From an uncultured Lachnospiraceae bacterium (GTDB lineage: Bacteria > Bacillota > Clostridia > Oscillospirales > CAG-272): a stretch of DNA of 64,000 nucleotides. The translations under genes and the position numbers were made by a program. The stretch lies in the NCBI GenBank assembly GCA_964403505.1, contig CAYOFP010000001.1:70548-134547 (forward strand), written 5' to 3'. This document shows, piece by piece, positions 2,346 through 24,335 of this stretch. The notes beneath the pieces were generated by a model, which was not told where the DNA came from, searched no databases, and saw only the letters and a program-made list of their open reading frames with translations. The first letter of the stretch is position 1, and every line of letters starts with the position of its first letter.

Positions 2346-2379
2346 GGGTTAGAAAAAACCTGCCTTCTTTTGCTACAAT
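2346..2379 (+). promoter_or_regulatory. Phage promoter-like motif P1 (GGGTTAGA-N20-TGc-TACAAT)
   Basis: GGGTTAGA at 2346-2353, exactly 20 nt, then TACAAT at 2374-2379 preceded by TGC. It lies 24 nt upstream of the terS start. The same architecture occurs at three other block starts. Confidence 0.6.
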
Positions 2380-2402
2380 GTCCCGTGAGAGGAGGGAATG
2401 AG

Positions 2403-2933
2403 ATGGAAAAAGAAAAAGACATTACCGAATACACGCGGGCAGAGCTGCGCGAGTTTATCGCGGGGATTCCTGCATCGGGTGCGGAATATGAATGCGGCGT
2501 CGAGCGTTTGTCCTCCCTTCCCTCGGAGGAGCTATACAAGCTGCTTAACAAGACACAGCGAGCTTTTTGCGCCGCTCTTGCCGAGCCGGACTGTACGATC
2601 AAAGAGGCGGCACGTGCGGCGGGACTGTCTGACTCATCCGACGCAGTGCTCAGCTCTGCGGGTTCTCGGATGCTTAGAAATGTTAAGGTCGCCGCGTACA
2701 GGCGTGCGTGCGCGCGAGATGATTGTAGGGCGCTCGCTCTGACGAGGGAAAACTGTCTCTTACGGCTTAACAATATCGCGCAACGCGCACGTAAGAATAA
2801 CGACCTGAAAAATGAGTTAGCTGCCGTCAAAACGATGATTCAGGTATCCGGGGTCTGCGAGGTCGACCGTGACAGTGCAGACATTACCGTCGCGATCTCT
2901 CTGCCGGCAGAGGCGCAGGAATATGCACAGTGA
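2403..2933 (+). CDS. terS: Terminase small subunit
   Basis: The ATG at 2403 follows GGAGGG by 6 nt; the longer ORF from 2325 has no RBS. A helix-turn-helix-like segment (CTIKEAARAAGLS) is present. The stop overlaps the TerL start. Confidence 0.7.
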   Translation: MEKEKDITEYTRAELREFIAGIPASGAEYECGVERLSSLPSEELYKLLNKTQRAFCAALAEPDCTIKEAARAAGLSDSSDAVLSSAGSRMLRNVKVAAYRRACARDDCRALALTRENCLLRLNNIAQRARKNNDLKNELAAVKTMIQVSGVCEVDRDSADITVAISLPAEAQEYAQ

Positions 2934-4336
2934 AACGCATTAAAACGACGGGCGGTATGCTGTCGCTTGAAGCGCCGAGTGAAAAGCAGCGGCTTTTCCT
3001 TACCGACACGCACAAATACGTCGCATACGGCGGCGCACGAGGCGGCGGAAAAAGCTGGGCGGTGCGTGCGAAGGCCATGCTGTTATGCCTAAACTATGCA
3101 GGAATCAAGACGCTGATCGTGCGCTCTACCTATCCCGAGCTGTATAACAACCATATTGCGCCCTTGCGTGCGTCGCTCGCAGGAATCGCACAGTACAATG
3201 ATGCGCATAAAATGTTTACCTTTCCGAATTCGTCGACGATCAAGTTCGGCTACTGCAACAACGACGGTGACGTTCAGCAATATCAGGGTGCGGAATATGA
3301 TGTGATCTTTATCGACGAGGCCACGAACCTCGAGGAAGACTGGATCAAGAAAATAATCGCCTGTATGCGAGGCGTCAACGATTTTCCGAAGAGAATTTAC
3401 TATACCTGTAACCCGGGCGGACGCTCGCATCACTATATCAAGCGGCTTTTTATCGACCGCAATTTTGAGCGCGGAGAAGACCCGGACGAATATTCGTTTA
3501 TTCAGGCGAAGGTCGGCGACAATCCTGCGCTGCTGCGGGCACAACCCGATTACGTTAAACAGCTCGAGTCTCTGCCGCCGCAGATCCGCGCGGCGTGGCT
3601 CGACGGAAGCTGGGACATAAATTCCGGGCAGTTCTTCTCGGAATTCCGCAACGACCCCGAGCATTATGCCGACCGTGAATGGACGCATGTGATAGATCCG
3701 CTGCCTGATTCACGGATTCGCCGCATGACGCTCTACCGCTCGTACGATTTCGGCTATCACAAGCCGTTTTCTTTGGCCTGGTGGGGAGTGGATTCGGACG
3801 GGATACTCTATCGTTTACTCGAATTTTACGGCTGTAACGGCTTTCCGAACGAGGGGATCCGAATGAGTGCAGACGAGCAGTTCCGCAAGGTTCGTGAAAT
3901 TGAGGACGAGCACCCGTGGCTCAAGGGAAAACACATACACGGGGTGGCAGATCCTGCGATATGGAATGCGGAAAGCGGCGAGAGTGTCGCAGAAACTGCC
4001 GCACGTTACGGCATTTATTTCGACCCCGGGGACAATGCACGGATCGCCGGATGGATGCAGATGCGCTATCGGATGCAGTTTGATGAAAACGGGCGGGCGC
4101 GGATGTATTTTTTCAAGGACTGCAAGGCGATCATACGCACGCTTCCCTTGCTTCAGTTCGACGAGCGCAAGGTCGAGGATCTTGACACAAGCGGCGAGGA
4201 CCATGCCGCAGACGAAGCGAGATATCTGTGCATGGCGCGCCCGGTGCGTCCCTTGATCGAGCATGCCGACGCTCCGCCGATATACGATCCGCTCGGAACG
4301 TTAAATACCAAAAAGGCGCGGAAATTCAATTTATAA
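2930..4336 (+). CDS. terL: Terminase large subunit
   Basis: Walker A motif YGGARGGGKSW and Walker B motif DVIFIDEAT, with a C-terminal nuclease-type acidic motif (GEDHAADEARY). 468 aa. Confidence 0.95.
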   Translation: MKRIKTTGGMLSLEAPSEKQRLFLTDTHKYVAYGGARGGGKSWAVRAKAMLLCLNYAGIKTLIVRSTYPELYNNHIAPLRASLAGIAQYNDAHKMFTFPNSSTIKFGYCNNDGDVQQYQGAEYDVIFIDEATNLEEDWIKKIIACMRGVNDFPKRIYYTCNPGGRSHHYIKRLFIDRNFERGEDPDEYSFIQAKVGDNPALLRAQPDYVKQLESLPPQIRAAWLDGSWDINSGQFFSEFRNDPEHYADREWTHVIDPLPDSRIRRMTLYRSYDFGYHKPFSLAWWGVDSDGILYRLLEFYGCNGFPNEGIRMSADEQFRKVREIEDEHPWLKGKHIHGVADPAIWNAESGESVAETAARYGIYFDPGDNARIAGWMQMRYRMQFDENGRARMYFFKDCKAIIRTLPLLQFDERKVEDLDTSGEDHAADEARYLCMARPVRPLIEHADAPPIYDPLGTLNTKKARKFNL

Positions 4337-4363
4337 ATTTTTATTCAGAACGGAGGATAAAGA

Positions 4364-6406
4364 ATGGCGATTCTCGGAATAGGAAAACGAAAAAGTACGG
4401 AAACGGCGCAGAAGATCGGGAAAAAGGAGTTAAAGCACTTTGACGAAATTCTGCAAAAGTACAGAGAGGGCAAATCAAGCATAGAAGCCCGTGCCGTTGA
4501 AAACGAGGAATGGTGGAAGCTCCATCAATGGGAGCAGACGCAAAACGGAAATAAAAATGACATCCAACCACGGGGCGCGTACCTATGGAACACGATCGAG
4601 GTAAAGCACGCGGATGTGACTGCCGCATACCCCGAGCCGACCGTGCGTCCGCGCAACCAAGACGATATACCCGAAGCGGAAAAGCTGTCTTCAATACTGC
4701 CAGTAGTGCTCGAACAAAACGAGTTCCGCCGGGTATGGAGCGAGGTCAACAAGTATAAGCTAAAGCAAGGAACGGGAATTTACGGCGTTTTTTGGGACGG
4801 AGACCGTCTCGGCGGATTAGGAGATATCGCAATTAAAAAAATCGACATTTTGCGTATCTTCTGGGAGCCGGGAGTCACCGATATTCAATCCTCACGCTAT
4901 GTATTTCTCGTGGATCTGTGGGATATCGACCGACTCGAAGCGCAGTATCCCGAGCACGCCGGAAATTTAAAGAACGGCGGTAAGATGACTGTCAAAAATT
5001 ATTTATATGACGACAATGTCGACACAACAGATAAGGCGGTAGTGGTCGACGTCTATTACAAGGTGCAGCAGAACGGGCGTACTGTGTTGCATTACTGCAA
5101 ATACTGCGGAAACTGCGTGCTTTACGCAACGGAAAACGATACAGCGCCCTCCGCTGCCCTTTCCGACAGCGGTAATGAAACTGCTCCGGATGCCGCAGAG
5201 AACGGCGCACCCTGCCCTGCGCAAAACGGCCTTTACGATCACGGACTGTATCCCTTTGTATTTGATCCGCTCTTCGAGGTAGAGGGTTCGGTCGCCGGGT
5301 ATGGCTACATCGACATAGGAAAGTCGATACAATCACAGATCGACCTGATGGATCAGGCGTTTCTCAAATCGACACTCGCCAACTGCACGCCGCGGTATAT
5401 GATATCCGGAAATACCGGAGTGAACGAGGAAGAATTTGCCGACTTCACCCGTCCGTTTGTTCATTTCGAGGGGGCGCTCACCGATATCAATGTACGTGAA
5501 ATACCGCAGACCTCGCTTTCGGGCAACTTCCTCGATGTTTATCAGCTCAAAGTGAATGAGCTCAAGGAAGTGCTCGGAAACCGCGATGTGGCGAACGGAG
5601 GAACGACAAGCGGCGTGACCGCCGCTTCTGCTATTGCGACCCTGCAGGAGGTATCCGGGCGAATGAGCAAGGATTCTACCCGGGACGCTTACCGTGCGTT
5701 CAAGGGCGTAATAAATCTCTGCATCGAGCTCATTCGTCAGTTTTACACCGTTCCGCGTACCTTCCGCATTATCGGAGAGGGCGGTATGCAGAAATTTATC
5801 ACCTATACAAACGCAGGCCTCGGCGAGCAGGCGCAAAGCAATATCATGGGCGTGAAAATGGGAATGCGGCTCCCCGTCTTTGATATCGAGGTAAGTGCGC
5901 AGAATGCGACCGAATATACGAAGCAGTCGCAGAACGAAATGGCATTACAGTTCTTCTCGCTCGGGTTCTTTAATCCGGCGCTGTCGGATCAGGCGCTCGC
6001 CTGCCTCGAGACTATGGACTTTGATCACAAGGATGATGTGATGGACCGTGTGAGCAAGAACGGACTGTTATATCAGCGCTTACAGCAAATGCAACAGATC
6101 GCCATCGGCCTTGCAAGCAAGTATGAGCCTGAGTTAGCACAGGCGCTGATCGCACAAGGACAGGCGGACATGGGCGGCGTGGGGTTCCCCGAGGCGAGCG
6201 CAGGCGAGCCTTGGGGCGTTCCGAGCGGTGCGCCTATGGCAGGCGGCGCACAGATCTCTCGTTTTGCAGGAGAGGGAGAGGGTGCTTCCGAGCGCGTGGG
6301 GTTCCCCGCTGCGAGGTCACGCAGCGGCGGGGGTTCTGAGCACCCGAATGTGAAGCGAGCACGTGCGGCAGCACAAAATGCTGCACAGCCGGAGGGAGCG
6401 TCATGA
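4364..6406 (+). CDS. Portal protein with a repeat-derived Gly/Pro/Ala-rich C-terminal extension
   Basis: 680 aa, directly after TerL, with RBS GGAGGA. The last ~75 aa are encoded by the GC-rich hairpin repeat at 6181-6342. Confidence 0.8.
   Translation: MAILGIGKRKSTETAQKIGKKELKHFDEILQKYREGKSSIEARAVENEEWWKLHQWEQTQNGNKNDIQPRGAYLWNTIEVKHADVTAAYPEPTVRPRNQDDIPEAEKLSSILPVVLEQNEFRRVWSEVNKYKLKQGTGIYGVFWDGDRLGGLGDIAIKKIDILRIFWEPGVTDIQSSRYVFLVDLWDIDRLEAQYPEHAGNLKNGGKMTVKNYLYDDNVDTTDKAVVVDVYYKVQQNGRTVLHYCKYCGNCVLYATENDTAPSAALSDSGNETAPDAAENGAPCPAQNGLYDHGLYPFVFDPLFEVEGSVAGYGYIDIGKSIQSQIDLMDQAFLKSTLANCTPRYMISGNTGVNEEEFADFTRPFVHFEGALTDINVREIPQTSLSGNFLDVYQLKVNELKEVLGNRDVANGGTTSGVTAASAIATLQEVSGRMSKDSTRDAYRAFKGVINLCIELIRQFYTVPRTFRIIGEGGMQKFITYTNAGLGEQAQSNIMGVKMGMRLPVFDIEVSAQNATEYTKQSQNEMALQFFSLGFFNPALSDQALACLETMDFDHKDDVMDRVSKNGLLYQRLQQMQQIAIGLASKYEPELAQALIAQGQADMGGVGFPEASAGEPWGVPSGAPMAGGAQISRFAGEGEGASERVGFPAARSRSGGGSEHPNVKRARAAAQNAAQPEGAS
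6181..6342 (+). repeat. GC-rich hairpin repeat, copy A (two GGGGTTCCCC-hairpin-GGGGnTTC[C/T]GAGC subunits separated by ~65 bp)
   Basis: Subunit A1 at 6181-6229 and A2 at 6297-6342 closely match subunits B1 and B2 at 9306-9398. Each has an internal stem, for example CCGCTGCG-AGGTCA-CGCAGCGG. Confidence 0.75.
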
Positions 6407-6732
6407 TAACAGTCGAGTATGATAAAACGACGTGTGCGGTAAGCGTGCACGGCCACGCAGGAAGCGCCGAGCCCGGATGCGATCTTGTCTGTGCGGCGTG
6501 CTCGATGCTGGTCTACGGACTCTTACAGGCGCTGACGGATCTGTGTCCCCGGTCTGCTCCCGGCAAAGGGGGCATACGGCGGTGCAGGGCGGAGCCGGGA
6601 GATGCACACATAGAGTGGCACGCCGAAGAATGGGAGAAAGCACGTGCAATGCTGATATTTGCCGCATATGCGAGCGGATTTCGTGCGCTTGCCCGTGAAA
6701 ATCCCGACTATGTGCAGTATACAGAAAAATGA
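6403..6732 (+). CDS. prp: Prp-like cysteine protease (phage homologue of the ribosomal protein L27 processing peptidase, DUF464)
   Basis: Signature VHGHAGSAEPGCDLVCAACSML (His...Cys dyad in the GHA / D-[IL]-VCA-x-[VC]-S context). 109 aa. ATGA overlap with the portal stop. Confidence 0.8.
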   Translation: MITVEYDKTTCAVSVHGHAGSAEPGCDLVCAACSMLVYGLLQALTDLCPRSAPGKGGIRRCRAEPGDAHIEWHAEEWEKARAMLIFAAYASGFRALARENPDYVQYTEK

Positions 6733-6735
6733 TCG

Positions 6736-6770
6736 AGCAGGAGGTGATCAGCCTCCTGCTTAATTTTTTT
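6736..6770 (+). terminator. Rho-independent terminator closing the packaging block
   Basis: Stem AGCAGGAGG / CCTCCTGCT (9 bp), then TAATTTTTTT. Confidence 0.7.
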
Positions 6771-6777
6771 GTTTGCG

Positions 6778-6811
6778 GGGTTAGAAAACGACAATTCCGG
6801 TGTGATATGAT
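6778..6811 (+). promoter_or_regulatory. Phage promoter-like motif P2 (GGGTTAGA-N20-TGa-TATGAT)
   Basis: GGGTTAGA at 6778-6785, 20 nt, then TATGAT at 6806-6811 preceded by TGA. It follows the terminator immediately. A ~130-nt leader with several short hairpins precedes the scaffold ATG. Confidence 0.55.
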
Positions 6812-6942
6812 AGGCGCAAAGGCAGAGGAAGCGGCTCGTATGAGCGAGTACGAACGCCGTACCGTTATGCCGGGATGTACGATAAGAGTCATGGGCTATA
6901 CCCATTGAGAGTCGCAGGCTGAACCTGCAGAAAGGAAAGTAC

Positions 6943-7902
6943 ATGAAAACATTAAAAATCGATCTGCAATTATTCTCAGACGGAGGAGAGGGCGCTGCAG
7001 CGTCCGCCGCAACAACTGATGATGTGCAGAAAGACGCAGCGCCGACAGGCGCACAGGCCGGACAAAAGGACGCACAGGTGCTTTACGGCAAGCAAGCGGA
7101 CAGCGCACCTGTTGTGCAGAAAACCGAAAAAGATGCAGAAGCTCAGGGAAAAGAGACCGCAGAGGCGACGCCTGAGTCCGAAAAGGCGCAGGACGAAGAG
7201 AGCTTTGAAGAGCTGATCAAGGGAAAGTACAAAAACGATTTTGAAAAACTGTTATCCCGCCGCTTTAAGAAAAGTGCGCAAACAGAATCGCAGAACGCCG
7301 CTATGCGTACTCTGCTCGAAAACGTCGCGATCAGCTATGGACTCGACCCGGAGTCAGACAGTCTCCTCGACGATATCAAAAAGGCACAGGATGCGGACGA
7401 GGAGCTCTATCAGAAGGCGGCATATGAAAAAGGCATCAGCCCTGAGGAATACCGCCGTGAGCTCGCAAAAGACAGGAAGATAAAAGAGCTTTCCCGAAAG
7501 GTTGAGGAAAACGAACAGCGTGAGAGAAATACTGCATGGGTACAGCATCTCAAAGCGCAGGTACCGCAGGTGCAAAAGATGTTTCCGAATTTTGATCTCG
7601 ACACCGAGATGAAAAATCCGGACTTTGCTTACCTGGTTCGTCCGGGCTCGCCGACGAGCATTGAGGCGGCGATGTACGCTGTTCATCACAGAGAGATCCT
7701 GTCGGGCGCAGTAAAGACCGCGGCACAGCAGGCGGCCGAGCAGACAGCAAACGCCGTCGCCGCAAACAAAGCACGGCCGAAAGAAGGCGGACTTTCCGCA
7801 GTACCGCCGACCGTAGTCAAGGACGATCCGGCAAAATGGAGTAAAGAGGACCTCGCAGAAATACGCCGCAGGGTCGAACGGGGAGAAAAAATAAGACTGT
7901 GA
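6943..7902 (+). CDS. Scaffolding protein with an L27-like N-terminal propeptide
   Basis: Acidic, Ala/Glu/Lys-rich and helical, 319 aa, located between the protease and the capsid gene. The N-terminus MKTLKIDLQLF-SDGG carries the LQLF motif. Confidence 0.7.
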   Translation: MKTLKIDLQLFSDGGEGAAASAATTDDVQKDAAPTGAQAGQKDAQVLYGKQADSAPVVQKTEKDAEAQGKETAEATPESEKAQDEESFEELIKGKYKNDFEKLLSRRFKKSAQTESQNAAMRTLLENVAISYGLDPESDSLLDDIKKAQDADEELYQKAAYEKGISPEEYRRELAKDRKIKELSRKVEENEQRERNTAWVQHLKAQVPQVQKMFPNFDLDTEMKNPDFAYLVRPGSPTSIEAAMYAVHHREILSGAVKTAAQQAAEQTANAVAANKARPKEGGLSAVPPTVVKDDPAKWSKEDLAEIRRRVERGEKIRL

Positions 7903-7976
7903 GAATCGCCAACGCCGTGTGCCTCGTGTGAGGTGTAAAGGCACAGTGTTATGCTCCCGAATGAAAGGAGAAATGA

Positions 7977-9008
7977 ATGAAAACATTAATGGAAAACGAA
8001 ACATATGCTTTTGTATTGAATTTACAGCTTTTTGCTGAGGGCGATACAGGTGCAACAGTTTATGACGCTTCAAGTGTGGGACTGACGACGGCAAAGCCAA
8101 CGTCAATGTCCCACGAAATGAAAACATACTATAACCGTGAGCTGCTCGAGAACGCCAATCCGAATCTGATCTACATACAGTTCGGCAAGCGCTGTCCCAT
8201 TCCGGCAGGCAGCGGTAAGCTCGCAGAGTGGCGAAAATTCGCTCAGTTTGAGAGGGTGAAGGAGCCTCTGACCGAAGGAGTCGTGCCGAAACCGAGTGCG
8301 ACGTCCGTATCGATCATCACAGCTGAAACGGCACAGTACGGCGATTGGACACCGATATCCGATGTGCTCGATCTGACCGCGATCGATAATGTCGTCCTCG
8401 AGGTAACCAAGGAGCACGGCGATAACGCCGGACGCTCGCTCGATTCCCTTGTGCGCGACGTGGTATATGCAAATTCAAACGTCATGTCGGACGGTTCGCA
8501 GAAGATCACCCCTGCACTCATTGCACAGGCGGTCGCTGCCCTCAAGCGGCAGAATGTGCCGACCATCAACAGCAAATACCACTGTATTATCCATCCGTCG
8601 GTCGCATATGACCTGATGCAGGACAGCGCATGGCTCGACGCACATAAGTACGCAAATCCCGAAAACATCTATGCCGGTGAGATAGGTGAGCTGTACGGAG
8701 TCCGGTTCTTTGAGACGACACAGGCGCCGATTCACTCGGAAAAGGTGGGAGATGCGACTGTCGCATCCAATGTCTATTACACGCCGATCTTCGGCTTAGA
8801 CGCCTACGGCGTAGTTGACGTTACGGGCGGCGGGCTCGAAACCATTGTTAAAGACAAGAGCGAGGGCGGCACGGCAAATCCGCTCAATCAGTTCAGCACT
8901 GTCGGATGGAAAGTTACCGCATTCGGTGCAAAAATGCTGTATCCCGAGCGGTTAGTCAACCTCAAGGTGACATCGTCACTTGCTGCATCTGACAATGCGA
9001 ACGTGTAA
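7977..9008 (+). CDS. Major capsid protein with an L27-like N-terminal propeptide
   Basis: 343 aa, RBS AAAGGAG, directly after the scaffold gene. The N-terminus ...AFVLNLQLF-AEGD mimics the L27 NLQFFA Prp site. Confidence 0.85.
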   Translation: MKTLMENETYAFVLNLQLFAEGDTGATVYDASSVGLTTAKPTSMSHEMKTYYNRELLENANPNLIYIQFGKRCPIPAGSGKLAEWRKFAQFERVKEPLTEGVVPKPSATSVSIITAETAQYGDWTPISDVLDLTAIDNVVLEVTKEHGDNAGRSLDSLVRDVVYANSNVMSDGSQKITPALIAQAVAALKRQNVPTINSKYHCIIHPSVAYDLMQDSAWLDAHKYANPENIYAGEIGELYGVRFFETTQAPIHSEKVGDATVASNVYYTPIFGLDAYGVVDVTGGGLETIVKDKSEGGTANPLNQFSTVGWKVTAFGAKMLYPERLVNLKVTSSLAASDNANV

Positions 9009-9022
9009 AAGCAAAGGAGTTT

Positions 9023-9280
9023 ATGATGGCAGAAAAAAAGACAAACAAAGAAGAAAACACCGCACCCGAGGAACAGGAGTACACAGTACGCCTGCCTAAA
9101 GTTCGGGGCGAGGACGCAAAATTCGTCGGGATCGACGGGGTCGCATACCTTGTGAAAAGAGGCGAGAATGTGCGTGTGCCCAAAGCGGTATACGACGAAC
9201 TGATGCGCGCAGAAGCGGCGGAAATTCGTGCAGACGAGCAGGTGGAAGCGCTCGCAGTCAAGAAACAGATCGTGGGGTGA
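9023..9280 (+). CDS. Small phage protein following the capsid gene (function unknown)
   Basis: 85 aa, RBS AAAGGAG, tightly packed after the capsid gene. Confidence 0.5.
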   Translation: MMAEKKTNKEENTAPEEQEYTVRLPKVRGEDAKFVGIDGVAYLVKRGENVRVPKAVYDELMRAEAAEIRADEQVEALAVKKQIVG

Positions 9281-9305
9281 GAACCCCATGCGCCGCATCA
9301 GCGAA

Positions 9306-9398
9306 GGGTTCCCCGAGGCGAGCGCAGTCGAGCCTTGGGGGGTCCGAGCAGCGAGGGGTTCCCCACTGCGAGGTACGCAGCAGTGGGGGTTCTGAGCA
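9306..9398 (+). repeat. GC-rich hairpin repeat, copy B (subunits B1 and B2, adjacent)
   Basis: GGGTTCCCCGAGGCGAGCGCAGTCGAGCCTTGGGG... and GGGGTTCCCCACTGCGAGGTACGCAGCAGTGGGGGTTCTGAGC. Copy B is intergenic, whereas copy A lies inside the portal ORF. Confidence 0.75.
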
Positions 9399-9430
9399 GG
9401 GGATGTCTTATGGCATCCCCGTTATTTTTA
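9399..9430 (+). terminator. Terminator/attenuator-like hairpin after the capsid genes
   Basis: Stem GGGGATG / CATCCCC, then GTTATTTTTA. It lies just before the RBS of the next gene. Confidence 0.45.
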
Positions 9431-9444
9431 GAAGGAGAAAGAAC

Positions 9445-9837
9445 ATGACCGTAAAGGATATAGTCACATTTGTAGACAGAGTTTACAGCAATGATATTGA
9501 TATGGACGTAAAAGCCGGGTTTATCGCACATTGTGACGCACAGCTGCGCCGGGATCTCTTACCGACGCACGAGCAGGACATGGACTGCAAAGCGGAGGAG
9601 CAGCACACCGAAAAGGACACGGGAAAATATGACGGAGACACGGTGCTTTTTGCGCCCGACCGATATGCCGATCTATACCGATGGTATTTACAGGCGCGCC
9701 TGTCTCTGATTCTCTCGCAGGCGGGAATGTATCAGACGTGCGCCGCCCTTTATGAGAGTGCCCGGGATGAGTTTGCGAAAGAATACAACCGCACACATAT
9801 GCCGTGCAGGCGTGTGGAGGCGCTGAAACTGACATGA
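9445..9837 (+). CDS. Phage protein; position suggests a head-completion or adaptor role
   Basis: The ATG at 9445 follows GAAGGAG. The longer ORF from 9277 would translate the repeat/terminator region. ATGA overlap with the next gene. Confidence 0.45.
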   Translation: MTVKDIVTFVDRVYSNDIDMDVKAGFIAHCDAQLRRDLLPTHEQDMDCKAEEQHTEKDTGKYDGDTVLFAPDRYADLYRWYLQARLSLILSQAGMYQTCAALYESARDEFAKEYNRTHMPCRRVEALKLT

Positions 9838-11807: not shown

Positions 11808-12010
11808 AATACCCTCCCATACTTACAGGTACGCCGGAGGAACAGATCCGTCAGATATGGGAATATCTGTGCCGGCTCACAAACACTCTGCGCACCCAGC
11901 CCGGCGTAGAATCGCTTTTAGGGCATGATGCAGGTACGGGAATCGCACTCGGTGATCAGTTTACCGCCCTGCAAAGAATGATCGAAGGAGGAAATGATGG
12001 CAAAAATTAA
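11798..12010 (+). CDS. Small phage protein
   Basis: 70 aa, overlapping both neighbours, which suggests translational coupling. Confidence 0.4.
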   Translation: MEIEYPPILTGTPEEQIRQIWEYLCRLTNTLRTQPGVESLLGHDAGTGIALGDQFTALQRMIEGGNDGKN

Positions 12011-13046: not shown

Positions 13047-13057
13047 CTCGGAAGAGC

Positions 13058-13614: not shown

Positions 13615-13635
13615 TATTATCACCTCTCCATCAGT

Positions 13636-13672
13636 ATATGTACATTATAGCGTACATATGCACTTTTGTCAA
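13636..13672 (-). promoter_or_regulatory. Sigma-A consensus promoter plus palindromic operator of yefM-yoeB
   Basis: On the minus strand: TTGACA (13667-13672), 17 nt, TATAAT (13644-13649). The inverted repeat ATATGTAC/GTACATAT (13636-13643 / 13652-13659) brackets the -10 box. The GTAC core resembles known YefM operators. Confidence 0.7.
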
Positions 13673-13685
13673 TAGTTTTTGCCGA

Positions 13686-13719
13686 GGGTTAGAGATGTCT
13701 CGTATGGTTTTGATACAAT
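13686..13719 (+). promoter_or_regulatory. Phage promoter-like motif P3 (GGGTTAGA-N20-TGa-TACAAT)
   Basis: GGGTTAGA at 13686-13693, 20 nt, then TACAAT at 13714-13719. It lies 26 nt upstream of the giant ORF and is divergent from the yefM promoter. Confidence 0.6.
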
Positions 13720-13745
13720 AACGGCAAAGAGAACGGAGGTTAAAT

Positions 13746-16700: not shown

Positions 16701-19700
16701 GCACGCTGTGGGTTCTCCCTGTCTGACAGCGGTATTGCGATGTTAGCAGGCGTAAATACTGCATCGTGGGAGAGGGCGGACAATACTCTGAAGCAGGCGA
16801 TATATAGCGCAACTAAAAAAGGCAACTCTGACGTAGGTGCGGTATATTCTTCGGTCACACGGGAGGATGTCGTGCAAGCTTATGCCGCATCCGACAAGCT
16901 CGGAACAAAGCATGCGGCAAATGCCATGCTTCGGCTGATCGAACGAACCGCCGAGCGGTACGGTGTGCAGGTCGTTTTTGCCGATCTCGCAAACGGATAC
17001 AAAGGCGGTCACATCGCCGGCACAAACAGAATCGTCCTCGGCATGGATATTGATGCAGGACTGCTCACCCGAACAATGGGACACGAGATGTTCCACTATC
17101 TGAAAGGACTGAACGGCGCGCTCTCAGGGCAGTTACAATCTGACGTGATAACGTGGCTTAAGGACACGGGCAAATATGATGCGGTATATGCACAGTTTGA
17201 GGAAAACTACAGCGAGGAAACCGCCCATCTGTCAGAGGCGAAAAAACGTGCATATCTCGAGGAAGAGATAGCGGCAGATTCCTGCTTTGACGCACTCTCA
17301 AATGAGCGTTTTCTCGGCGATTTTTACGTTCAGACCGCACAAAAGAAAAACGGAGCGGAATTTTTGCAGAAGCTCGCTGACTTTTTCACTTCCCTTTCGC
17401 AAATGCTTCGTGATGCGGTGGCGAACTTCACACAGAGATATAAATCGAACGAGCTTATAAAGGCGCTTTCGCAGGATGCAGATATGCTCGAGCACATCAA
17501 CGAGAAATTCCGGGAGCTTCTTGCAAGCGCAAAGTCGGCGGAAAATGAAAAAAGCGCTGCGAATGCGCAGCGTGAGGAGACAATACGCTTTTCCCGGATG
17601 AATGAGAAATCATTCGAGGAAAATGTAGATGCTGTCCTTGAAGCGAGCGATGCATATGCGAAACAGCACAAAGGAGACTTTGTTCGCGTAATGGAGCATA
17701 CGCCGGCGGTAATCCTCGATCATGTCGAGGATGCAGCGGATCTCGAGGTTATTATTCAATACCACTCGTTGTATCTGGAGACAAGACACGAAGGCGTACT
17801 CGAAGGAAATTATCACAATTTAGGACGAGAGATCGCAAAAAACCTCCCACAGTATATATCCGACCCGGATACAATCGTGCGGATGGACAACGATAGGCTC
17901 AATCTGTTTGCTACCATACAGGATCAAAAAAAGAATATACGCATTGTTTCGGTCGAGATGAATACGGTTCTGGACATTAACAGCAAATACCGTAAATACA
18001 ATCTTGTGTTAACCGTTTTCCCTGCGAAGGCGAACTATGTGAGTAACATAATAGCAAAACACGGAGTAAAAGTAGAATATGAAAAAGAAGGCCTTGCGCA
18101 AGTGAATCCCCAGCTGCATAAATCTCTGGGTATTGTTAACGCAAAACCTTCTACTGATAGTATATCCGATTCCGGGCAAGATGTCAACACTTCAGGGCAA
18201 GAAAATTCCGGAAATGTCCGCTATCAGATGTCAGCTGATAAATATTCATATGATGAGTTGGTAAGCAAGCCGGATATGCATGTCACGCAAATCAGCGATC
18301 GAAATATCCCGGAGCCGTCAAATCTTGCTCGCAAAGGAATTGTCAGTCATGCGCTCGAAAATGCCGAAAAGGTCGGAAAACGTCGGGAAGACGGCAATAT
18401 CAGCATTCATGTGAATGATACTGACTCTGATGTTATTTTATCCCGCAAAGGACTCGAGCACGGACTTGACCGCAGATTTTCGGTCAATGCACCTGTTACG
18501 CTTCAAGCAGGCAAGATACTGCAAAATGCCATCCGCATAAACGAAATGAACCCGAAAAAGAAAACGGCGACAGGAAGCAGTATCTTTATCGGTATGGCCA
18601 AAAACACAAAAAACGAACCGTATGTCGTGCGATTTGTAGTCAATGAGTTTTCCGGCGAGGTCGAGGATGTCAATGTCTTATATGCACTCAATGCAAAAAA
18701 AGAGCCGGGTGCATTGCTGCCTCCAGTCACGAAAAATTCCGCTCCGGATACCGACTCTACTATCAGTATATCCGATTTGCTCGACTTTGTCAACAGGTAT
18801 TTTCCGGATATTTTACCCGAAAGTGTTTTGCAACATTACGGATATACTGCACGTCCTGACGGCGTGCTCGGTAAAAGTGTCCGCTATCAAAAGTCGGCCG
18901 ACAGTGCGCAGGAAGCGGAGATCCGCAAACTGCGGCAGGATTATGAGCTTACCAAACTGCAAAACGATCTGATACGCAGTAAGTTGAAGGTATGGGAACA
19001 TAAAGTGCCGAGCCCGAAGGCTCTGCGACGGTACATGAATGATGTCATGCAGCGGTACGGCGTGCAGTATGACGATGCCGGGAAATTACAGGCGTTTGAA
19101 AAGCTTACTGAATTTTACGGGTACTTAGTGCGCAGTAAGACACCGAATATGGTGATCGTGCAGGATATGGCCTTTGACCTCGCCCGGGATATGATCGCCA
19201 ATTCGGCGGAATTAGAAAAAACGCCGTATGACAGCGTGGAGAGGGAGTTCCGCCGGACATTGCGTGAGACTGGCGTGCAGATCACCGAAGCGCAAAAGCG
19301 CGAGATCATAAACACCTATGGGACGATGACCAACTTCCGCCGGGAAAGCGGAGGTATGATCCGTATCAATAGCAACAGCAAGCTTTTTGTTGCCGATATT
19401 ATAGAGGAAGCACGGAGCATCTACGACATCAAAACGGATCACGAGGATGAATTCCTGGTCGAGCTGCTACCGTACATGAAAGCGAGCGCCGATGCGGCGC
19501 GCGGAGTGTGGGTCGATCCGTATAACGGGGACGCACAGATCGAGCACATGGCGGCGATGGACCTTGCCGCTACTCTGCTGGATGCGCTGTACGACCCGAA
19601 TATCGTGCCGGTGCGAAAGACCGTCACAGATATAGAAGCGGAAAAGCGGTACCGCGCTCTGATGCAGCAGTACAACTATTACGAAAAACGCATCGGGAAG

Positions 19701-22700
19701 CTGAACGACCGGGTAAGGCAGGCACGTGCCGAAGGCAGGCAGGCAGTGCAGAACGAACGCGGGCACAGGCAGGCAGCAATACGTCTGATGGCAGAACACT
19801 ATGCACAAATGACCGAAAAGGCACGCGAGCGACGCAAGCAAAGCGAAACGCGTGCAAAGATCGACCGACTGATGAATCAGATGAACGCACGACTTTTCAG
19901 ACCGACAAAGGAAAAGTATGTTCCTCAGAATATGCAATGCGCGATCATCGGAGTCCTGGAAGCGGCAAACCGCTTTGACGGCAATCGGTCTGAGCGACTC
20001 GCAAAATATGATCGCATGATCGCCGTAGCTGATCCTGAACAGCGCGAGCAGCTCGCAAGGATCCGTTCGGTCGTCGCCGAAGGAGGACAGAGCATAGGAG
20101 ACGCGATCAGCGCAGTCAGGCAGATGTATGACGCATACGCCGCAGGAGAAAACAGCGCACAAAGCGCAGCATACGATCCGCTCGTATCAAGAATGCTCGA
20201 GAGGGCTGAACAGGAACTGAAGGGAGCAAATGCAAACGATCTGAGTGCGGCACAGCTCGACACGCTATGGCGTGCGCTCAAAGCGACCGATCAGGTCGTA
20301 CGGGATGCGGTCAAGCTCAAAGGCAGTCGAATCAAAAAGGATGTTTATGAGGCAGGACGGGCGCTCATCGCCGAAACAAGGGCGATAAAAGGCTCGAAAA
20401 ACGGAATCGCATCATCGTTTCTGCAATCGATGCTCTCGCCTCGCTCATTTTTCGAGAGGTTGGGCGGATTCGCAAAAAACTCGTTGTGGGTCGCAATGTA
20501 TGATGACTTAAACGACGCACAGAGAGAAATGCTGAATATCAGAATGCAGGGGACGATGCTCTTTAACGACCTGATTACGGGAAAGGAAAATGCCGAGGCG
20601 CTTCGCAGGATGGTAAGCGAAAAGCATGCCGTCGACATCGGTCTGACTGACGCTGAAGGCGAGGCGATCAAGCTCACGCACGATCAGCTGATAGCGCTTT
20701 ACCTACATATGCAGAGCGATGACAACCTGCGCCATATGGAGTCCGGCGGCATCAGCATCCGCACAAAGAACGGGAAGATCCGTGCGGTCGGTGTGGGACA
20801 GAAGCTGGTCGAGGCAAATAATGCGATCCACGACGCACGTGCGCGAATCTCCGCCGCAGAGTGGCAGACGGGCACTGAGCAATGGCAGCACATGAGCGAC
20901 GAGCAAAAGCGTCCGATCCTCGATGAGTGGCAGGCGGCAAGAGAACAGCTCGAGCAGGCGGAACAGGAGACGAACCGTATCCGTGAGGAGCACATCGCAG
21001 GCCTCGAGGGGATGCGCGAAAAGATCGAGGCGGCGCTGACCGACTACGACCGGGAATGGATCAGTGCGGCGCAGGAATTTTTCCGTTACAGTGCATCGCT
21101 GATCGACGAGACAACCTACGACCGATACGGTTTCCACCGTGATCTCATCGAGAATTATTTCCCGATCCTGACTGATACGGACTATAACAAAACAGAGCTT
21201 GAAAGCTTCGGGAGCGAGATCACCCTCGACGGGCTCGGATTCCTTAAGGACCGTGTGACCTCGTACAATCCGCTCGTCCTCTCCGGCGTGACGGATACGG
21301 TCAGCCGTCATCTCGACGGAATCGCAAAGTATGCAGGAATGTCGGGAGCACTCGACAATTTCAAAAAAGTATACAACATGATCGATTCGGGTTATTCCGA
21401 CAGCGTGAAAAATGCGGTCAACGATGTTTTCGGCAATCGCAACGGCGGTGCGTACCTCGAAAAGATCATAAAAGACATGATCGGGGCGACGGGCGGTGAC
21501 GCAACGCTGGGCAAGCAGATCGCAGGGATCCTGCGAGGCGGACTTGCTAAATCGGCGCTGATACTCAATCCACGGGTTGCACTCTTACAGACTGCTTCCT
21601 ATCCGACGGCTGCTGCCGAGCTCGGATGGAGACCGCTCGCCCGTGCGCTTGCACGCAAAGACGGCGACAGTCTGCCGGTATTCAGCCGTGCGGATCAGGA
21701 GCTGATCGCAAAATACTCGCCGCTTTTATGGTACCGATTACAGGGATACACGACCGAAAGGCTCGACGGTCTTTCGGGAAAAGCGAAAGTAAGCACAAAG
21801 ATAAAAGACAACACCGTCATAAAGAAAGGCCTGCTCGGTTGGATCAATGCGATGGATGCGGCAACGGTCGGCAGGCTGTGGTATGCGGCGCAGTATTATG
21901 TCGACGAGCAGTTTGGGTATCTTGAGCATGGAAGCGAGGAATGGTATGAGCAGGTAGCACAGGCGTTTAACCGCACGGTCGAACGCACACAGCCGAACTA
22001 TACTACACTGCAACGCACGGCGATCGCACGGTCGCAAAACGAATTTGTAAAGTCGATCGCTATGTTTACGACACAGAGGCTGCAAAACTTCAATATCGCA
22101 TACTCTGCGGCGGCACGGCTGATGCGATATCAGCACGATTTCGGAAAAGGGTGCGGAGGCGTGACGAAAACAGATCTACGTAATGCACGCACCGCACTTA
22201 AAAACTCGCTTTCTTCCCTTATCGTGGCAGGCGTAGATATCGCAGTTTCACGGGTGCTGGTGCAGGCGTTACTTCACAACCTCAAAGCATACCGTGACGA
22301 TGACGACGAGCTGAGCGCACAAAGCGTCGCCGTCGGAACAGCGATGTATTTCAGTGAGAGTATGGCGAGCAATGTGCTTTTCGGAAGCGAAATATACCGA
22401 ATGATAGAAGCGTGTATTACGGGCGGTAAGTACTATACGACCGAGCTATCCGGAATCGGGACGGCTTTTGATATCGCCGGAGATATGGTTCAAAGCGTAC
22501 AAAATCTTATCAAAGGTGTTAAAAAAACTGATGAGGAGTCGGCTGACGATAGATGGGAAGGTGCTGTCAAGAGCGCAAAGAAGCTCGTCGGAGATCTATG
22601 CATCGCTTTCGGCATCCCTGCCCGCAATGTCGGCATGATCGTCGGTGCGGTCGGCGGACATATGAACAGTATAAAGGAAATCGCTTACGGCACTATCGAC

Positions 22701-23435
22701 GGAAAGTGGAAAAAATACTTTGACGACGACCTCGGGACACTCTCCTATGCACAAAAGGTAAAACAAATCGATGTACGCGAGGACGACCCGGAAGAGGTCG
22801 CACGCAAACTGCGTGAGCTGTATGACGGTGCATCGGATGAAGATGAGCGTAACGATATTGAGGAGGCAATCTTAAAGTACTTCCGCAAGAAGTGGGAGAA
22901 AGAGCCGGCTGGGCGGAATGAGTACTTTACCACATTGCACCGCACGGGGTTATGGGGTGAATCCTTCCTCAACGGAAAATTCCGTGAATGGGAGTACAAA
23001 AAGGACACAGGCGAGAAATCGTTCGGCGAATCGACAGACATATACAAGGCCATCCGAGACGGCGGAGATATAGATGCGGCGATCGAGGAATACAAGACAT
23101 TTATTCCTCAAACGGGCGACGAAGCCGAGAAGAAGGTGCATGAGACGGTAAGGAAACAAGTCGGCAAGAATCTGACAGACGGCAAGCTCGATGAGGACAC
23201 TGCGCTTTCCCTGCTCACGCAATATGCAGGTCAAAAACCGTCCGAGGCGGCAAAGACCATCGCAGGATTTAACAAATCGGCCGATCAGGCACGCATCAAA
23301 GAGCGATTCATGAATGGAGAGCTTGACTATGATGGTGCGGTCGACGCCCTGCGTGATATCGGAGATACACGCAAGGATGCAGAGAAGTGTGTCGACGGAT
23401 GGCAGGACGAGTGGAAAGATTATTTCCACGAATAA
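13746..23435 (+). CDS. Giant (3229 aa) multidomain phage protein; candidate virion-packaged polyvalent or ejection protein with an HExxH metallopeptidase motif
   Basis: A single uninterrupted ORF with RBS GGAGG. Gly/Ala/Ser-rich hydrophobic segments map to ~15075-15870. HEMFH is at 17082-17096 in the context RIVLGMDID...TMGHEMFHY. Two compact domains lie at ~17686-18090 and ~18390-18715. The long C-terminal half is helical. Confidence 0.8.
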   Translation: MNAIDKYLEKKKEMSEIIGGAMQRHADEALSSGFDSLGAEYDKLYKAHQAAENTWTSAEDFNALAKSRTDFVGRVEELKKWLPHSSYGKDKQNELYANLDSIKKAVDDSRTTPRGNVSRGNNSLASLAESRQAYYSGYKDADDYAKWSAVEGGSLEDIQKFIDDAKAEGRGDKIDTYKMQGDDYTITRPGEGEYLRQADIDRAQKIFDGKKYTQSVDGKTLTEIYENAYANFENDHGEYSYLSDAAAGLERSAQEYESANEWLNAKKAELEQKRNALQSELDSITLHDNVNGHVFTYYSEENKQRGKKLESDISQVDHQIEAVGADIENISESSHVTEWNAEYNALPEDARFLIDYLANSQDNPFVVYDIEDASRASEMVGKEFPNINDIAEYLTDTGVVSGGSEDEIARSVQDLVKRRNKINHMTSSKEAAEKHAESAKEHPVLTSLASIPTSLVSGIAAMPEVIRGTIEGGKGYEYGVDRYSPAFAPTRYTQTVRGTVGAGIDSEAGKFLYQTTMSALDSAAAMTVGMGVGAAFGAASGASSAVTNKIISGTTNFIMSSSAGANAIYEGLEKGYSSEKAVTLGIISGVIEAASETFSIEAILNSAGNDAFWKTVAKSFAAEGSEEVVSNWGNKIVDAIANKSQAEIYQSILSYQDAGESSGQALAHAIFDSLGEDAAAFLAGGLSGAAMGSAAQLGNIAGEHIGNAIDTHRLSRSALDNDGGVRLVEAALELPEGNTARKAAEKYSDGNKNVSKHDAAVMMREVNRNLRKQISAQTESAAKQVIADELSERYGITESDKLSDMMETAYRALTGQELSPDERALYEQSEQIREIVQDMQGDPDGKFARFFTETTTDAAISATEQAMQTRETIAGVESGSTKALGSIVRPYIGKGNQKVVRGTKITAINADGTFEMSTVDNKGADAGTVTISTADLSSKVRSIYDTVIESTDNANIANAIIQAAATDRRVVAQISPELVSAVSDIARCGFSLSDSGIAMLAGVNTASWERADNTLKQAIYSATKKGNSDVGAVYSSVTREDVVQAYAASDKLGTKHAANAMLRLIERTAERYGVQVVFADLANGYKGGHIAGTNRIVLGMDIDAGLLTRTMGHEMFHYLKGLNGALSGQLQSDVITWLKDTGKYDAVYAQFEENYSEETAHLSEAKKRAYLEEEIAADSCFDALSNERFLGDFYVQTAQKKNGAEFLQKLADFFTSLSQMLRDAVANFTQRYKSNELIKALSQDADMLEHINEKFRELLASAKSAENEKSAANAQREETIRFSRMNEKSFEENVDAVLEASDAYAKQHKGDFVRVMEHTPAVILDHVEDAADLEVIIQYHSLYLETRHEGVLEGNYHNLGREIAKNLPQYISDPDTIVRMDNDRLNLFATIQDQKKNIRIVSVEMNTVLDINSKYRKYNLVLTVFPAKANYVSNIIAKHGVKVEYEKEGLAQVNPQLHKSLGIVNAKPSTDSISDSGQDVNTSGQENSGNVRYQMSADKYSYDELVSKPDMHVTQISDRNIPEPSNLARKGIVSHALENAEKVGKRREDGNISIHVNDTDSDVILSRKGLEHGLDRRFSVNAPVTLQAGKILQNAIRINEMNPKKKTATGSSIFIGMAKNTKNEPYVVRFVVNEFSGEVEDVNVLYALNAKKEPGALLPPVTKNSAPDTDSTISISDLLDFVNRYFPDILPESVLQHYGYTARPDGVLGKSVRYQKSADSAQEAEIRKLRQDYELTKLQNDLIRSKLKVWEHKVPSPKALRRYMNDVMQRYGVQYDDAGKLQAFEKLTEFYGYLVRSKTPNMVIVQDMAFDLARDMIANSAELEKTPYDSVEREFRRTLRETGVQITEAQKREIINTYGTMTNFRRESGGMIRINSNSKLFVADIIEEARSIYDIKTDHEDEFLVELLPYMKASADAARGVWVDPYNGDAQIEHMAAMDLAATLLDALYDPNIVPVRKTVTDIEAEKRYRALMQQYNYYEKRIGKLNDRVRQARAEGRQAVQNERGHRQAAIRLMAEHYAQMTEKARERRKQSETRAKIDRLMNQMNARLFRPTKEKYVPQNMQCAIIGVLEAANRFDGNRSERLAKYDRMIAVADPEQREQLARIRSVVAEGGQSIGDAISAVRQMYDAYAAGENSAQSAAYDPLVSRMLERAEQELKGANANDLSAAQLDTLWRALKATDQVVRDAVKLKGSRIKKDVYEAGRALIAETRAIKGSKNGIASSFLQSMLSPRSFFERLGGFAKNSLWVAMYDDLNDAQREMLNIRMQGTMLFNDLITGKENAEALRRMVSEKHAVDIGLTDAEGEAIKLTHDQLIALYLHMQSDDNLRHMESGGISIRTKNGKIRAVGVGQKLVEANNAIHDARARISAAEWQTGTEQWQHMSDEQKRPILDEWQAAREQLEQAEQETNRIREEHIAGLEGMREKIEAALTDYDREWISAAQEFFRYSASLIDETTYDRYGFHRDLIENYFPILTDTDYNKTELESFGSEITLDGLGFLKDRVTSYNPLVLSGVTDTVSRHLDGIAKYAGMSGALDNFKKVYNMIDSGYSDSVKNAVNDVFGNRNGGAYLEKIIKDMIGATGGDATLGKQIAGILRGGLAKSALILNPRVALLQTASYPTAAAELGWRPLARALARKDGDSLPVFSRADQELIAKYSPLLWYRLQGYTTERLDGLSGKAKVSTKIKDNTVIKKGLLGWINAMDAATVGRLWYAAQYYVDEQFGYLEHGSEEWYEQVAQAFNRTVERTQPNYTTLQRTAIARSQNEFVKSIAMFTTQRLQNFNIAYSAAARLMRYQHDFGKGCGGVTKTDLRNARTALKNSLSSLIVAGVDIAVSRVLVQALLHNLKAYRDDDDELSAQSVAVGTAMYFSESMASNVLFGSEIYRMIEACITGGKYYTTELSGIGTAFDIAGDMVQSVQNLIKGVKKTDEESADDRWEGAVKSAKKLVGDLCIAFGIPARNVGMIVGAVGGHMNSIKEIAYGTIDGKWKKYFDDDLGTLSYAQKVKQIDVREDDPEEVARKLRELYDGASDEDERNDIEEAILKYFRKKWEKEPAGRNEYFTTLHRTGLWGESFLNGKFREWEYKKDTGEKSFGESTDIYKAIRDGGDIDAAIEEYKTFIPQTGDEAEKKVHETVRKQVGKNLTDGKLDEDTALSLLTQYAGQKPSEAAKTIAGFNKSADQARIKERFMNGELDYDGAVDALRDIGDTRKDAEKCVDGWQDEWKDYFHE

Positions 23436-23443
23436 AAAAGTAC

Positions 23444-23479
23444 AAAAAACCAACCGGGCAATCGTCCGGTTGGTTTTTA
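23444..23479. terminator. Bidirectional hairpin terminator
   Basis: Stem AACCAACCGG / CCGGTTGGTT (10 bp), flanked by an A-run and a T-run. It lies between the convergent giant ORF and the GNAT gene. Confidence 0.75.
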
Positions 23480-23483
23480 TGTA

Positions 23484-24035
23484 CTATATTAATTTTGTGT
23501 ATTGATTGTGTGTTCCGTCGTTTTGCAAGAAGCTAAACCCGTAACCCTCATAAAACCCTCGGATTTTTTCCTCGTCGCCACATTCGACTAACGCTACTTT
23601 ACATGGAAGCATAGCGTCTATTTCGCGTATGACTTCAAATGCAAAATCAAGAATTTCCGTTCCTTTTAAATCGGAACGAATATATTTGCCATCTTTTAAT
23701 TCGACGCGCTTTCCGAGCTGACCGATCAATACAAAGTTTATGGTTTCCGCTTTGCTGTTTCCGCTCGTGAATTTTTTAACTTTGCTACGACTGATTTGTT
23801 CTGCGACAAGACTCTTTGAAGATAATGTAAAGTACCCTTCGATTTTAAGCTCATCGCGACGAAACGACTCTTCATTTAACAATAAATATACATGACAAAG
23901 CTTTCTTTTGATGAAATCCTCTGCCTTGTCCTGCAAAAACATTTCGATATCTTTATCCTGCGCACATCGAAACGAAGAAAGAGCCGCCCTCAATACATCG
24001 TTAAAAACGGTATCTTTTGCGGCTCTCGAAAACAT
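23484..24035 (-). CDS. GNAT acetyltransferase of the toxin type (TacT/KacT-like)
   Basis: N-terminal FRCAQDKDIEMFLQDKA matches the F-x-C-G...L-x-x-FL signature of GNAT toxins. The C-terminal ALVECGDEEKIRGFYEGYGFSFL is a GNAT core. Confidence 0.65.
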   Translation of the reverse strand: MFSRAAKDTVFNDVLRAALSSFRCAQDKDIEMFLQDKAEDFIKRKLCHVYLLLNEESFRRDELKIEGYFTLSSKSLVAEQISRSKVKKFTSGNSKAETINFVLIGQLGKRVELKDGKYIRSDLKGTEILDFAFEVIREIDAMLPCKVALVECGDEEKIRGFYEGYGFSFLQNDGTHNQYTKLI

Positions 24036-24040
24036 ATCGC

Positions 24041-24208
24041 TCAGTGGGACAAGAACTTCTTTAATCCTTCTCGCCCCCTACTTAAAGAAGATGATTTTTT
24101 ATTAACAACCGTTTTTCTTTCCGGCGCATTATCTAATTCTTTTTTGAGCTTACGGAATGTCTTCTCGTCTTTTATGATAAATTGTTTTGTAATAGACGAC
24201 GTTGCCAT
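24041..24208 (-). CDS. Small basic protein upstream of the GNAT gene (candidate antitoxin, non-canonical)
   Basis: 55 aa from the ATG at 24208, 8 nt after AAGGAGGTG. Its stop is 5 nt before the GNAT start. No clear DUF1778/RHH signature was seen. Confidence 0.5.
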   Translation of the reverse strand: MATSSITKQFIIKDEKTFRKLKKELDNAPERKTVVNKKSSSLSRGREGLKKFLSH

Positions 24209-24238
24209 AATTACACCTCCTTGCTTATCTGTACTATT

Positions 24239-24267
24239 ATTATACACAAAGCGAGCACTTATGTCAA
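24239..24267 (-). promoter_or_regulatory. Sigma-A consensus promoter of the GNAT cassette
   Basis: On the minus strand: TTGACA (24262-24267), 17 nt, TATAAT (24239-24244). Confidence 0.7.
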
Positions 24268-24301
24268 TATTTTTTTATTTAGGCTGTTTTTTATAGTCAT
24301 A

Positions 24302-24335
24302 GGGTTAGAAATAACCCCTGCCCTTTTGTTATACT
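24302..24335 (+). promoter_or_regulatory. Phage promoter-like motif P4 (GGGTTAGA-N20-TGt-TATACT)
   Basis: GGGTTAGA at 24302-24309, 20 nt, then TATACT at 24330-24335. It lies 26 nt upstream of the fibre block. Confidence 0.6.

Follow-up and report, generated by a model that had tools for sequence, protein, structure and literature searches.

Four described systems of phage promoter control come closest to the one considered here. The late promoters of SPO1 have the consensus CGTTAGA-N17-19-GATATT, as quoted in PMC3601020. The terS promoters of Gram-positive siphophages are served by the Ltr superfamily (RinA, ArpU, LtrA/Sigma70_r4, LtrB/DUF1492 and LtrC; PMC3753634). The middle promoters of T4 use a MotA box and sigma appropriation by AsiA, and the Ogr protein of P2 and the Delta protein of P4 activate several late operon promoters. 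Here we describe four promoter-like sites built around the 8-mer GGGTTAGA (the box) in DNA from an uncultured Lachnospiraceae bacterium. The window analysed is 64 kb long (contig CAYOFP010000001.1, positions 70,548 to 134,547). Its first 30.3 kb are the right-hand part of a prophage, with host genes (including ClpC and McsB) from about 30.4 kb. The best overall explanation, and in our view a likely one, is that a temperate prophage with a P22-type portal, resident in an Oscillospirales-like host of the Clostridia, uses the sites as its late promoters, and that they need a phage-specified positive factor.

The box occurs exactly four times in the window, on the plus strand only, at 2346, 6778, 13686 and 24302. 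In shuffled versions of the window, GGGTTAGA alone has a mean of 1.07 matches, and 2 of 100 shuffles reach four. The composite pattern GGGTTAGA-N17-TGn-TAnnnT, which all four sites match, was absent from 100 dinucleotide-preserving shuffles. The preliminary description of this DNA had reported these four sites with identical spacing, and this is borne out exactly. The motif it wrote down needs amending in two respects: the 20-nucleotide (nt) spacer it gave already includes the TGn, and the fourth -10 hexamer is TATACT, so that the general form is TAnnnT and not TAnnAT. Read literally, as N20 followed by TGnTAnnnT, the pattern has no match in the window, because the TGn lies within the 20 nt.

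Late promoter 1 (2346..2379, plus strand) consists of the box at 2346-2353, 17 nt, TGC and the -10 hexamer TACAAT at 2374-2379, and is predicted to drive terS-TerL-portal-Prp. Late promoter 2 (6778..6811, plus strand) has the box, 17 nt, TGA and TATGAT, and precedes the scaffold-position gene, the major head gene and the internal virion protein genes that it would drive. The third (13686..13719, plus strand; box, 17 nt, TGA, TACAAT) stands before an open reading frame (ORF) of 3229 amino acids (aa), and the fourth (24302..24335, plus strand; box, 17 nt, TGT, TATACT) before the genes from the BppU_N fibre gene to the XhlA-like gene and the amidase gene (24362-30254). The identities of TerL, the P22-type portal, Prp, the major head protein, an internal virion protein, the BppU_N fibre, the XhlA-like protein and the amidase were confirmed. 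The assignment of the sites to the heads of four late blocks (terS, scaffold, giant ORF and fibre) stands. At three sites the start codon comes 23-26 nt after the end of the -10 (terS at 2403, the giant ORF at 13746 and the fibre gene at 24362); the scaffold-position gene (6943) starts 131 nt after it.

When the four sites are aligned, the invariant columns are the box, an A two bases past the box, and T..TG.TA...T. Two further columns are invariant, namely a T 30 nt upstream of the box (position 11, site 1) and a G 11 nt downstream of the -10 (position 90). Spacers and flanks are otherwise unconserved, which rules out duplication of the sites as a long repeat or cassette. Allowing one mismatch in the box, neither the prophage nor the 34 kb of host DNA has a further copy of box plus -10, except for a match at 42502 that is weak and probably due to chance, and no additional degenerate boxes are present in the gaps at 11807-11994 and 26176-26390. 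A literature search for GGGTTAGA gave only unrelated primer matches.

In geometry the box is closer to a sigma-A element than had been proposed. The extended -10 element TGnTAnnnT is present at all four sites, the -10 hexamers agree with the sigma-A consensus at five of six positions, and a consensus scan rates every site 9/12 sigma-70-like, with an 18-nt spacer and the TG. The upstream element had been described as not TTGACA-like and not at canonical spacing. In the window, however, TAGAAA or TAGAGA lies 18 nt from the -10, and TAGArA at 17-18 nt matches TTGACA in four of six bases (positions 1, 3, 4 and 6). We would rather describe the box as a -35-like element in which position 2 is invariably A in place of T and to which GGnW is added on the 5' side. 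Position 2 of the sigma-A -35 is where T is the most conserved base.

Related loci were collected by a portal search, which gave 14 IMG/VR loci and 80 prophage loci from genomes and metagenome-assembled genomes of Oscillospiraceae, Ruminococcaceae, Acutalibacteraceae, Faecousia and other Clostridia. The portals of these loci share 40-68% identity with that of the window, and the loci total about 1.5 Mb. In them the gene strand has 33 matches to the pattern GGnWTAGA-N19-20-TAnnnT, and the opposite strand has one. Nearly all of these matches are intergenic, many follow the T run of a terminator, and they lie 12-106 nt 5' of a Shine-Dalgarno sequence and start codon. This strand- and position-specific conservation is strong, and upholds the earlier view that the sites form a distinct class of promoter-like elements. 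The exact 8-mer recurs in many relatives at two junctions, 5' of terS and between Prp and the scaffold gene, even where the portals are only 45-50% identical. Syntenic copies of late promoter 1 are found 5' of terS in L008, L012, L018, L061, L084, L101 and L104, and of late promoter 2 after Prp in L003, L008, L012, L018, L020, L061, L084 and L101. The distance from GGGTTAGA to TAnnnT in the relatives is 19-20 nt. A position-frequency table has R as the first base after the box in 26 of 31 sites and A as the second in 28 of 31, which extends the consensus to GGGTTAGA-R-A-W and so completes the TAGArA hexamer. A T-rich or TG stretch 5' of the -10 is common in the relatives and not universal.

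Other relatives have sister boxes in the same position and with the same spacing, in most cases preceded by a run of G: ACCCTACC, GGTCTACC, GGATTACC, GGATTTAG and CGACTAAC. Such variety at a fixed place and spacing is the pattern expected for a diversifying specificity factor encoded by the phage. The cis-element is real, strand- and position-specific and under selection, and it diversifies between phage lineages. The four sites of the window are very probably functional promoter elements maintained by selection, and a phage-encoded factor acting in trans is probably needed for them.

The preliminary description had suggested a sigma factor or activator, probably encoded to the left of the window. 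The Logan contig L001, which is 100% identical to window 1-12093, adds 6459 nt leftward. This left arm encodes a cI-like repressor, a cro-like protein, a ParB_N protein, a zinc-ribbon protein and several proteins without database matches. Its helix-turn-helix (HTH) proteins are a 72-aa HTH_17 protein and a 121-aa protein with sub-threshold GcrA-N/sigma-r4-like matches. Pfam and PHROGs scans of the left arm revealed no recognisable sigma factor, and no ORF in the 36.7 kb formed by the L001 left arm and window 1-30300 matches Sigma70_r2 or Sigma70_r4 above threshold. None of the left-arm proteins has a homologue in the other phages bearing the identical box. The left arm was rejected as the source of a sigma factor, since only small HTH proteins are there and none is conserved in other box phages, and the zinc-ribbon protein (L001 6081-6428) was rejected as the shared factor because it is present only in L034, L084 and L085. 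The proposal of a factor on the left is therefore not supported by the recovered arm, which has neither a recognisable sigma nor a conserved factor. The only early protein shared with other box phages is encoded inside the window, at 2097-2318. It is a small protein with four conserved cysteines, to which we return below, and all-against-all clustering of ORFs from 98 loci gave no other non-structural family specific to a box class.

These searches bear on the idea that an alternative sigma factor of the phage reads GGGTTAGA as its -35, just as gp34 and gp33 of SPO1 read CGTTAGA-N17-19-GATATT. The box resembles the SPO1 late -35. GGTTAGA here matches CGTTAGA in six of seven bases and the -35 core GTTAGA is identical; in both, the distance between the box and an A/T-rich -10 is fixed at about 18-20 nt, and the genes downstream are late genes; the asymmetry of the box and the fixed spacing, seen in both, are typical of a sigma -35 element; and the 19-nt spacing of some relatives falls within the SPO1 range. 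However, SPO1 spacers measure 17-19 nt, against 20 nt at the four window sites and 19-20 nt among the relatives, and the -10 hexamers TACAAT, TATGAT, TACAAT and TATACT (TGnTAnnnT) are standard sigma-A TAnnnT with a TG extension and not GATATT. SPO1 is moreover a lytic herellevirus, whereas this is a temperate prophage of Clostridia with a P22-type portal. A phmmer --max search with SPO1 gp33, gp34, gp28 and gp27 against the ORFs of the prophage and the 98 loci found no homologue of any of them (best E = 0.36). The 10-kb early regions of the box-bearing L101 and L104 have no sigma match in Pfam either, and the early protein common to the box phages is the four-cysteine protein alone. A gp33/gp34 system of the SPO1 type was rejected, and an alternative phage sigma of any kind seems to us decidedly unlikely.

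The same lack of a phage sigma, together with the presence of TAGA-type boxes in prophages of several host genera, would suit an alternative sigma or transcription factor encoded by the Oscillospirales host, through which the phage ties its late expression to the state of the host. However, the 34 kb of host DNA contain no copies of the element, and all the loci together contain one minus-strand match. To our knowledge the box is also unlike the consensus -35 of sigma H, E, F, G, K, D or B or of the extracytoplasmic function sigmas. Closely related phages in similar hosts have quite different boxes, which a determinant carried by the phage explains better. We consider a host factor very unlikely.

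The minus-strand moron (accessory) genes had been reported to have perfect TTGACA-17-TATAAT promoters, and both were found as described. One (13644..13672, minus strand) serves a RelE/YoeB-type toxin-antitoxin moron and diverges from site 3; the other (24239..24267, minus strand) serves an acetyltransferase moron (23484-24035) and diverges from site 4. The early rightward promoter, in the intergenic region between the genes for the cI-like and cro-like proteins (L001 1359-1511), is also a perfect TTGACA-17-TATAAT. The proposed division of lysogen-expressed from induction-expressed genes by promoter class is too simple: consensus sigma-A promoters are not confined to lysogen-expressed morons, because this repressor-adjacent early promoter is one too. 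There are therefore three tiers of promoter, for the morons, for the repressor-controlled early genes and for the late genes with the box. The moron -35 elements and the late boxes stand back to back, 13 nt apart in one case (13644-13693) and 34 nt in the other (24239-24309), and are so close that the divergent promoters may interfere with each other.

Another account of the four sites is that they are plain sigma-A promoters, in which the extended -10 and a weak TAGAAA -35 suffice and no dedicated factor is involved. Late timing would then have another source, such as genome copy number after replication, readthrough or relief of silencing. The 9/12 agreement with the sigma-70 pattern, the 18-nt spacer with its TG and the -10 hexamers correct in five of six positions all suit this account. 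However, it leaves unexplained why GGnW and the change from T to A at position 2 are invariant in about 30 independent sites, and why the spacers diverge freely beside a fixed box. Constitutive firing would also express the lysin block in lysogens. Furthermore, the host sigma-A evidently prefers a canonical -35, since the morons and the early promoter have perfect TTGACA. Plain sigma-A promoters are in our judgement unlikely.

Silence in the lysogen is needed in any case, because block 4 includes the lysis genes. This need, and the overlap of the box with the -35 region, could also be met if the box were an operator at which a repressor holds the late promoters off in the lysogen. However, the box is a single asymmetric site of 8-11 bp with no dyad, and neither the cI-like nor the cro-like protein has a homologue among the other phages that carry this identical box. 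Negative control of this kind appears most improbable.

In T4 middle promoters, as here, a sigma-70-type -10 is kept, an asymmetric box specific to the phage takes the place of the -35 at a set distance, and the promoters are many and dispersed. The MotA box nevertheless differs in sequence and in position (centred near -30), and Pfam scans of the left arm and the prophage part of the window found no homologue of MotA or AsiA. The Ltr systems share with this locus the logic of late activation, in which a small protein is made from the last gene of the early cluster, directly 5' of the terS promoter, and that promoter is often set apart from the early cluster by a terminator. They differ in using a repeat region as target, where here there is a single box over the -35 with no repeats, and in having one late promoter instead of four dispersed ones; the four-cysteine protein has no detectable similarity to the ArpU, RinA, Sigma70_r4 or DUF1492 families. 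P2 Ogr and P4 Delta are cysteine-coordinated metal-binding proteins of about 72 aa, close to the 73 aa of the four-cysteine protein, and they activate several late operon promoters. Ogr has a CxxC-x22-CxxxxC motif and binds the dyad TGT-N12-ACA near -55. In the protein encoded here the cysteines are at 12, 25, 52 and 59 and there is no Pfam match, while the box is asymmetric and lies at -40 to -30; no dyad was seen upstream of the four boxes in the site alignment. By analogy, then, the system would work like SPO1 late, T4 middle, P2 Ogr and Ltr-dependent promoters, and wherever the proteins could be compared they did not belong to those families.

The four-cysteine protein (2097..2318, plus strand) is the product of the gene that closes the early cluster and ends 27 nt 5' of box 1, and it is the sole early-region protein with homologues in other box-bearing phages. 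Its invariant residues are C12, P13, C25, C52 and C59, with the spacing C-x12-C-x26-C-x6-C. The family is large: a search of clusters at 50% identity gives 1057 representatives with E <= 0.001. A hidden Markov model finds the protein in 41 of the related loci, always on the gene strand; the gene is directly 5' of terS in most of them and elsewhere lies a few kb upstream among genes of the replication module. A scan of IMG/VR found the family in 2 loci, and a JGI metagenome query for it returned no matches. AlphaFold2 confidently predicts a three-stranded sheet and two helices (predicted local distance difference test score 88.6). The box classes are separated more by the four-cysteine protein than by the portal, TerL, major capsid or scaffold protein: its identity within and between classes is 0.36 and 0.30, against 0.505 and 0.484 for the portal. 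The third residue after the fourth cysteine is Y in 14 of 14 phages with TAGA boxes and in 5 of 22 others.

In L101 and L104, the pattern GGGTTAGA-N20-TAGAAT also occurs at position 10079, inside the four-cysteine coding sequence. Here the conserved peptide CEGLE happens to be spelled GAGGGGTTAGAA, so that the match is probably a coincidence of coding; it shows that a few plus-strand matches are not promoters. Six loci without the family (L054, L073, L074, L083, L062 and L064) have a different small CxxC...CxxC protein, with the motif ...C.LCGGEI....E.YY..DGE..C..C..., in the slot before or overlapping terS, which suggests an exchange, at the terS junction, of small metal-binding proteins that are not homologous. 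A further subgroup (L052, L057, L044, L038 and L069) has a different regulatory layout. A conserved non-coding block, TTGTCAAG...ATCT(C/T)AAAAAA(G/A)TGCGAAA.AATCT, lies about 150-250 nt 5' of the four-cysteine gene, and is followed on its 3' side by a conserved small ORF (RDDPII.A.ERSGYPPW) and then by the four-cysteine gene fused to the start of terS.

We propose the following mechanism. Host RNA polymerase with its housekeeping sigma would recognise the extended -10 (TGnTAnnnT), while the canonical -35 would be replaced by the clade-specific box GGGTTAGA-R-A-W at roughly -40 to -30. TAGArA would thus stand at normal spacing with an A where sigma-A prefers T, and with GGnW added 5'. Because of the box, the promoters would stay silent in the lysogen and in the early phase that follows induction. 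They would fire only with a positive factor specified by the phage, which could be an activator of the class-II type or a cofactor that remodels sigma. This factor would be made from the end of the early operon, and all four blocks of structural and lysis genes would be switched on together. The four-cysteine protein is the leading candidate.

Several points weigh against this proposal or against its candidate. Promoter activity, late timing and dependence on a factor in trans are features that we infer. An extended -10 with four of six -35 positions could work with sigma-A alone, and the gene for a regulator may lie past the left end of the known sequence or in the host genome. The four-cysteine protein has no relative in Pfam, PHROG or the Protein Data Bank (PDB) by sequence or, in a Foldseek search of the PDB, by fold. 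Pfam and PHROG also gave no match for 80 members of the family, and a Foldseek search of BFVD with the model matched only uncharacterised gut-phage proteins. The isoelectric point is 9.0 here, but the family is not uniformly basic (median 8.3, range 5.0-9.8). In one subgroup the stop codon of the four-cysteine gene overlaps the terS start, and the gene is therefore co-transcribed with the terminase genes. Some relatives with full coverage of the 10 kb upstream, such as L040 and L089, lack a four-cysteine gene there, and L041 has A at the discriminating column yet a TTTAG-type box. The covariation of protein and box, which is uncorrected for phylogeny, is weak.

That the four-cysteine protein is the late-gene factor is accordingly speculative, and we put it forward only tentatively. 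On that reading, which is possible rather than probable, it founds a previously unrecognised and very large family (more than 1000 clusters at 50% identity) of small metal-binding switches for late genes. Such proteins would redirect the host sigma-A RNA polymerase to GGnWTAGA-type boxes in the -35 region, by binding DNA or by remodelling region 4 of sigma, and a few residues would tune the specificity for the box, for example Y or A at the third residue past the fourth cysteine, tracking TAGA and TACC boxes respectively.

The surrounding genes run, from the left, in the order C5-methylase fragment, rolling-circle Rep, the 73-aa ORF, terS, TerL, P22-type portal and Prp. They continue with the scaffold-position gene, the major head protein, internal virion proteins, the minus-strand RelE/YoeB toxin-antitoxin moron and the 3229-aa ORF, and end with the minus-strand acetyltransferase moron, the BppU_N fibre, other tail proteins, the XhlA-like protein and the amidase. 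The presumed terS (2403..2933, plus strand) is a gene call in L001 and lies directly 5' of TerL; its equivalent in L101 matches Terminase_2/5. A strong intrinsic terminator at 6735..6761 (plus strand), with an 11-bp stem and a T run, ends block 1 just 5' of promoter 2. The 3229-aa ORF (13746-23435, plus strand), which has a late promoter to itself, has phrog_22978 (uncharacterised) as its sole match, with E 2e-83, in addition to a sub-threshold MuF_C match, and is presumably a giant internal or ejection virion protein.

Three RNA features were seen along the way. A full-length type II hammerhead ribozyme (window 977-1051, plus strand; Rfam RF02276, 50.3 bits against a gathering score of 37, E 1e-7) sits between the C5-methylase fragment and the rolling-circle Rep gene, within the early operon. 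Directly 5' of the ribosome-binding site of the scaffold-position gene there is a small covarying hairpin (window 6912-6931, plus strand) of the form TC-[G+3-4 bp stem]-loop-[stem+C]-AGA(A)AGGA. It has equivalents in more than 20 loci (for example L004, L009, L025, L041 and L060), occurs twice in tandem in L011 and L028, and has another copy after promoter 1 in L008. RNAalifold with 24 sequences gives four pairs, three of which have compensatory changes (in 6, 7 and 11 sequences). The hairpin has no Rfam match, and may be an element of translational control, processing or mRNA stability. Finally, at about 12330-12400 of L034, 5' of the scaffold gene, GTAGGTTCGAATCCTAC resembles a tRNA T-arm, which suggests that this late leader may carry a tRNA gene.

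The putative late promoters described here make up a new phage-specific class in a group of uncultured gut prophages. The principle of phage-specific late promoters is already known, and the finding extends it to a new group of phages. Control of late genes has so far been uncharacterised in the abundant uncultured prophages of gut Oscillospiraceae and Ruminococcaceae. GGnWTAGA-N19-20-TAnnnT and the sister boxes mark the starts of operons and so allow better annotation, and the signature separates genes that depend on induction from constitutively expressed morons. The sites would also offer ready-made phage-inducible promoters, presumably tightly off, as genetic tools for anaerobes that are hard to handle, and the search for the activator is narrowed to a very short list. 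If the four-cysteine reading is true, the family would be a new class of phage transcription factor, and it would define the logic of late transcription in widespread uncultured gut prophages of the Oscillospirales.

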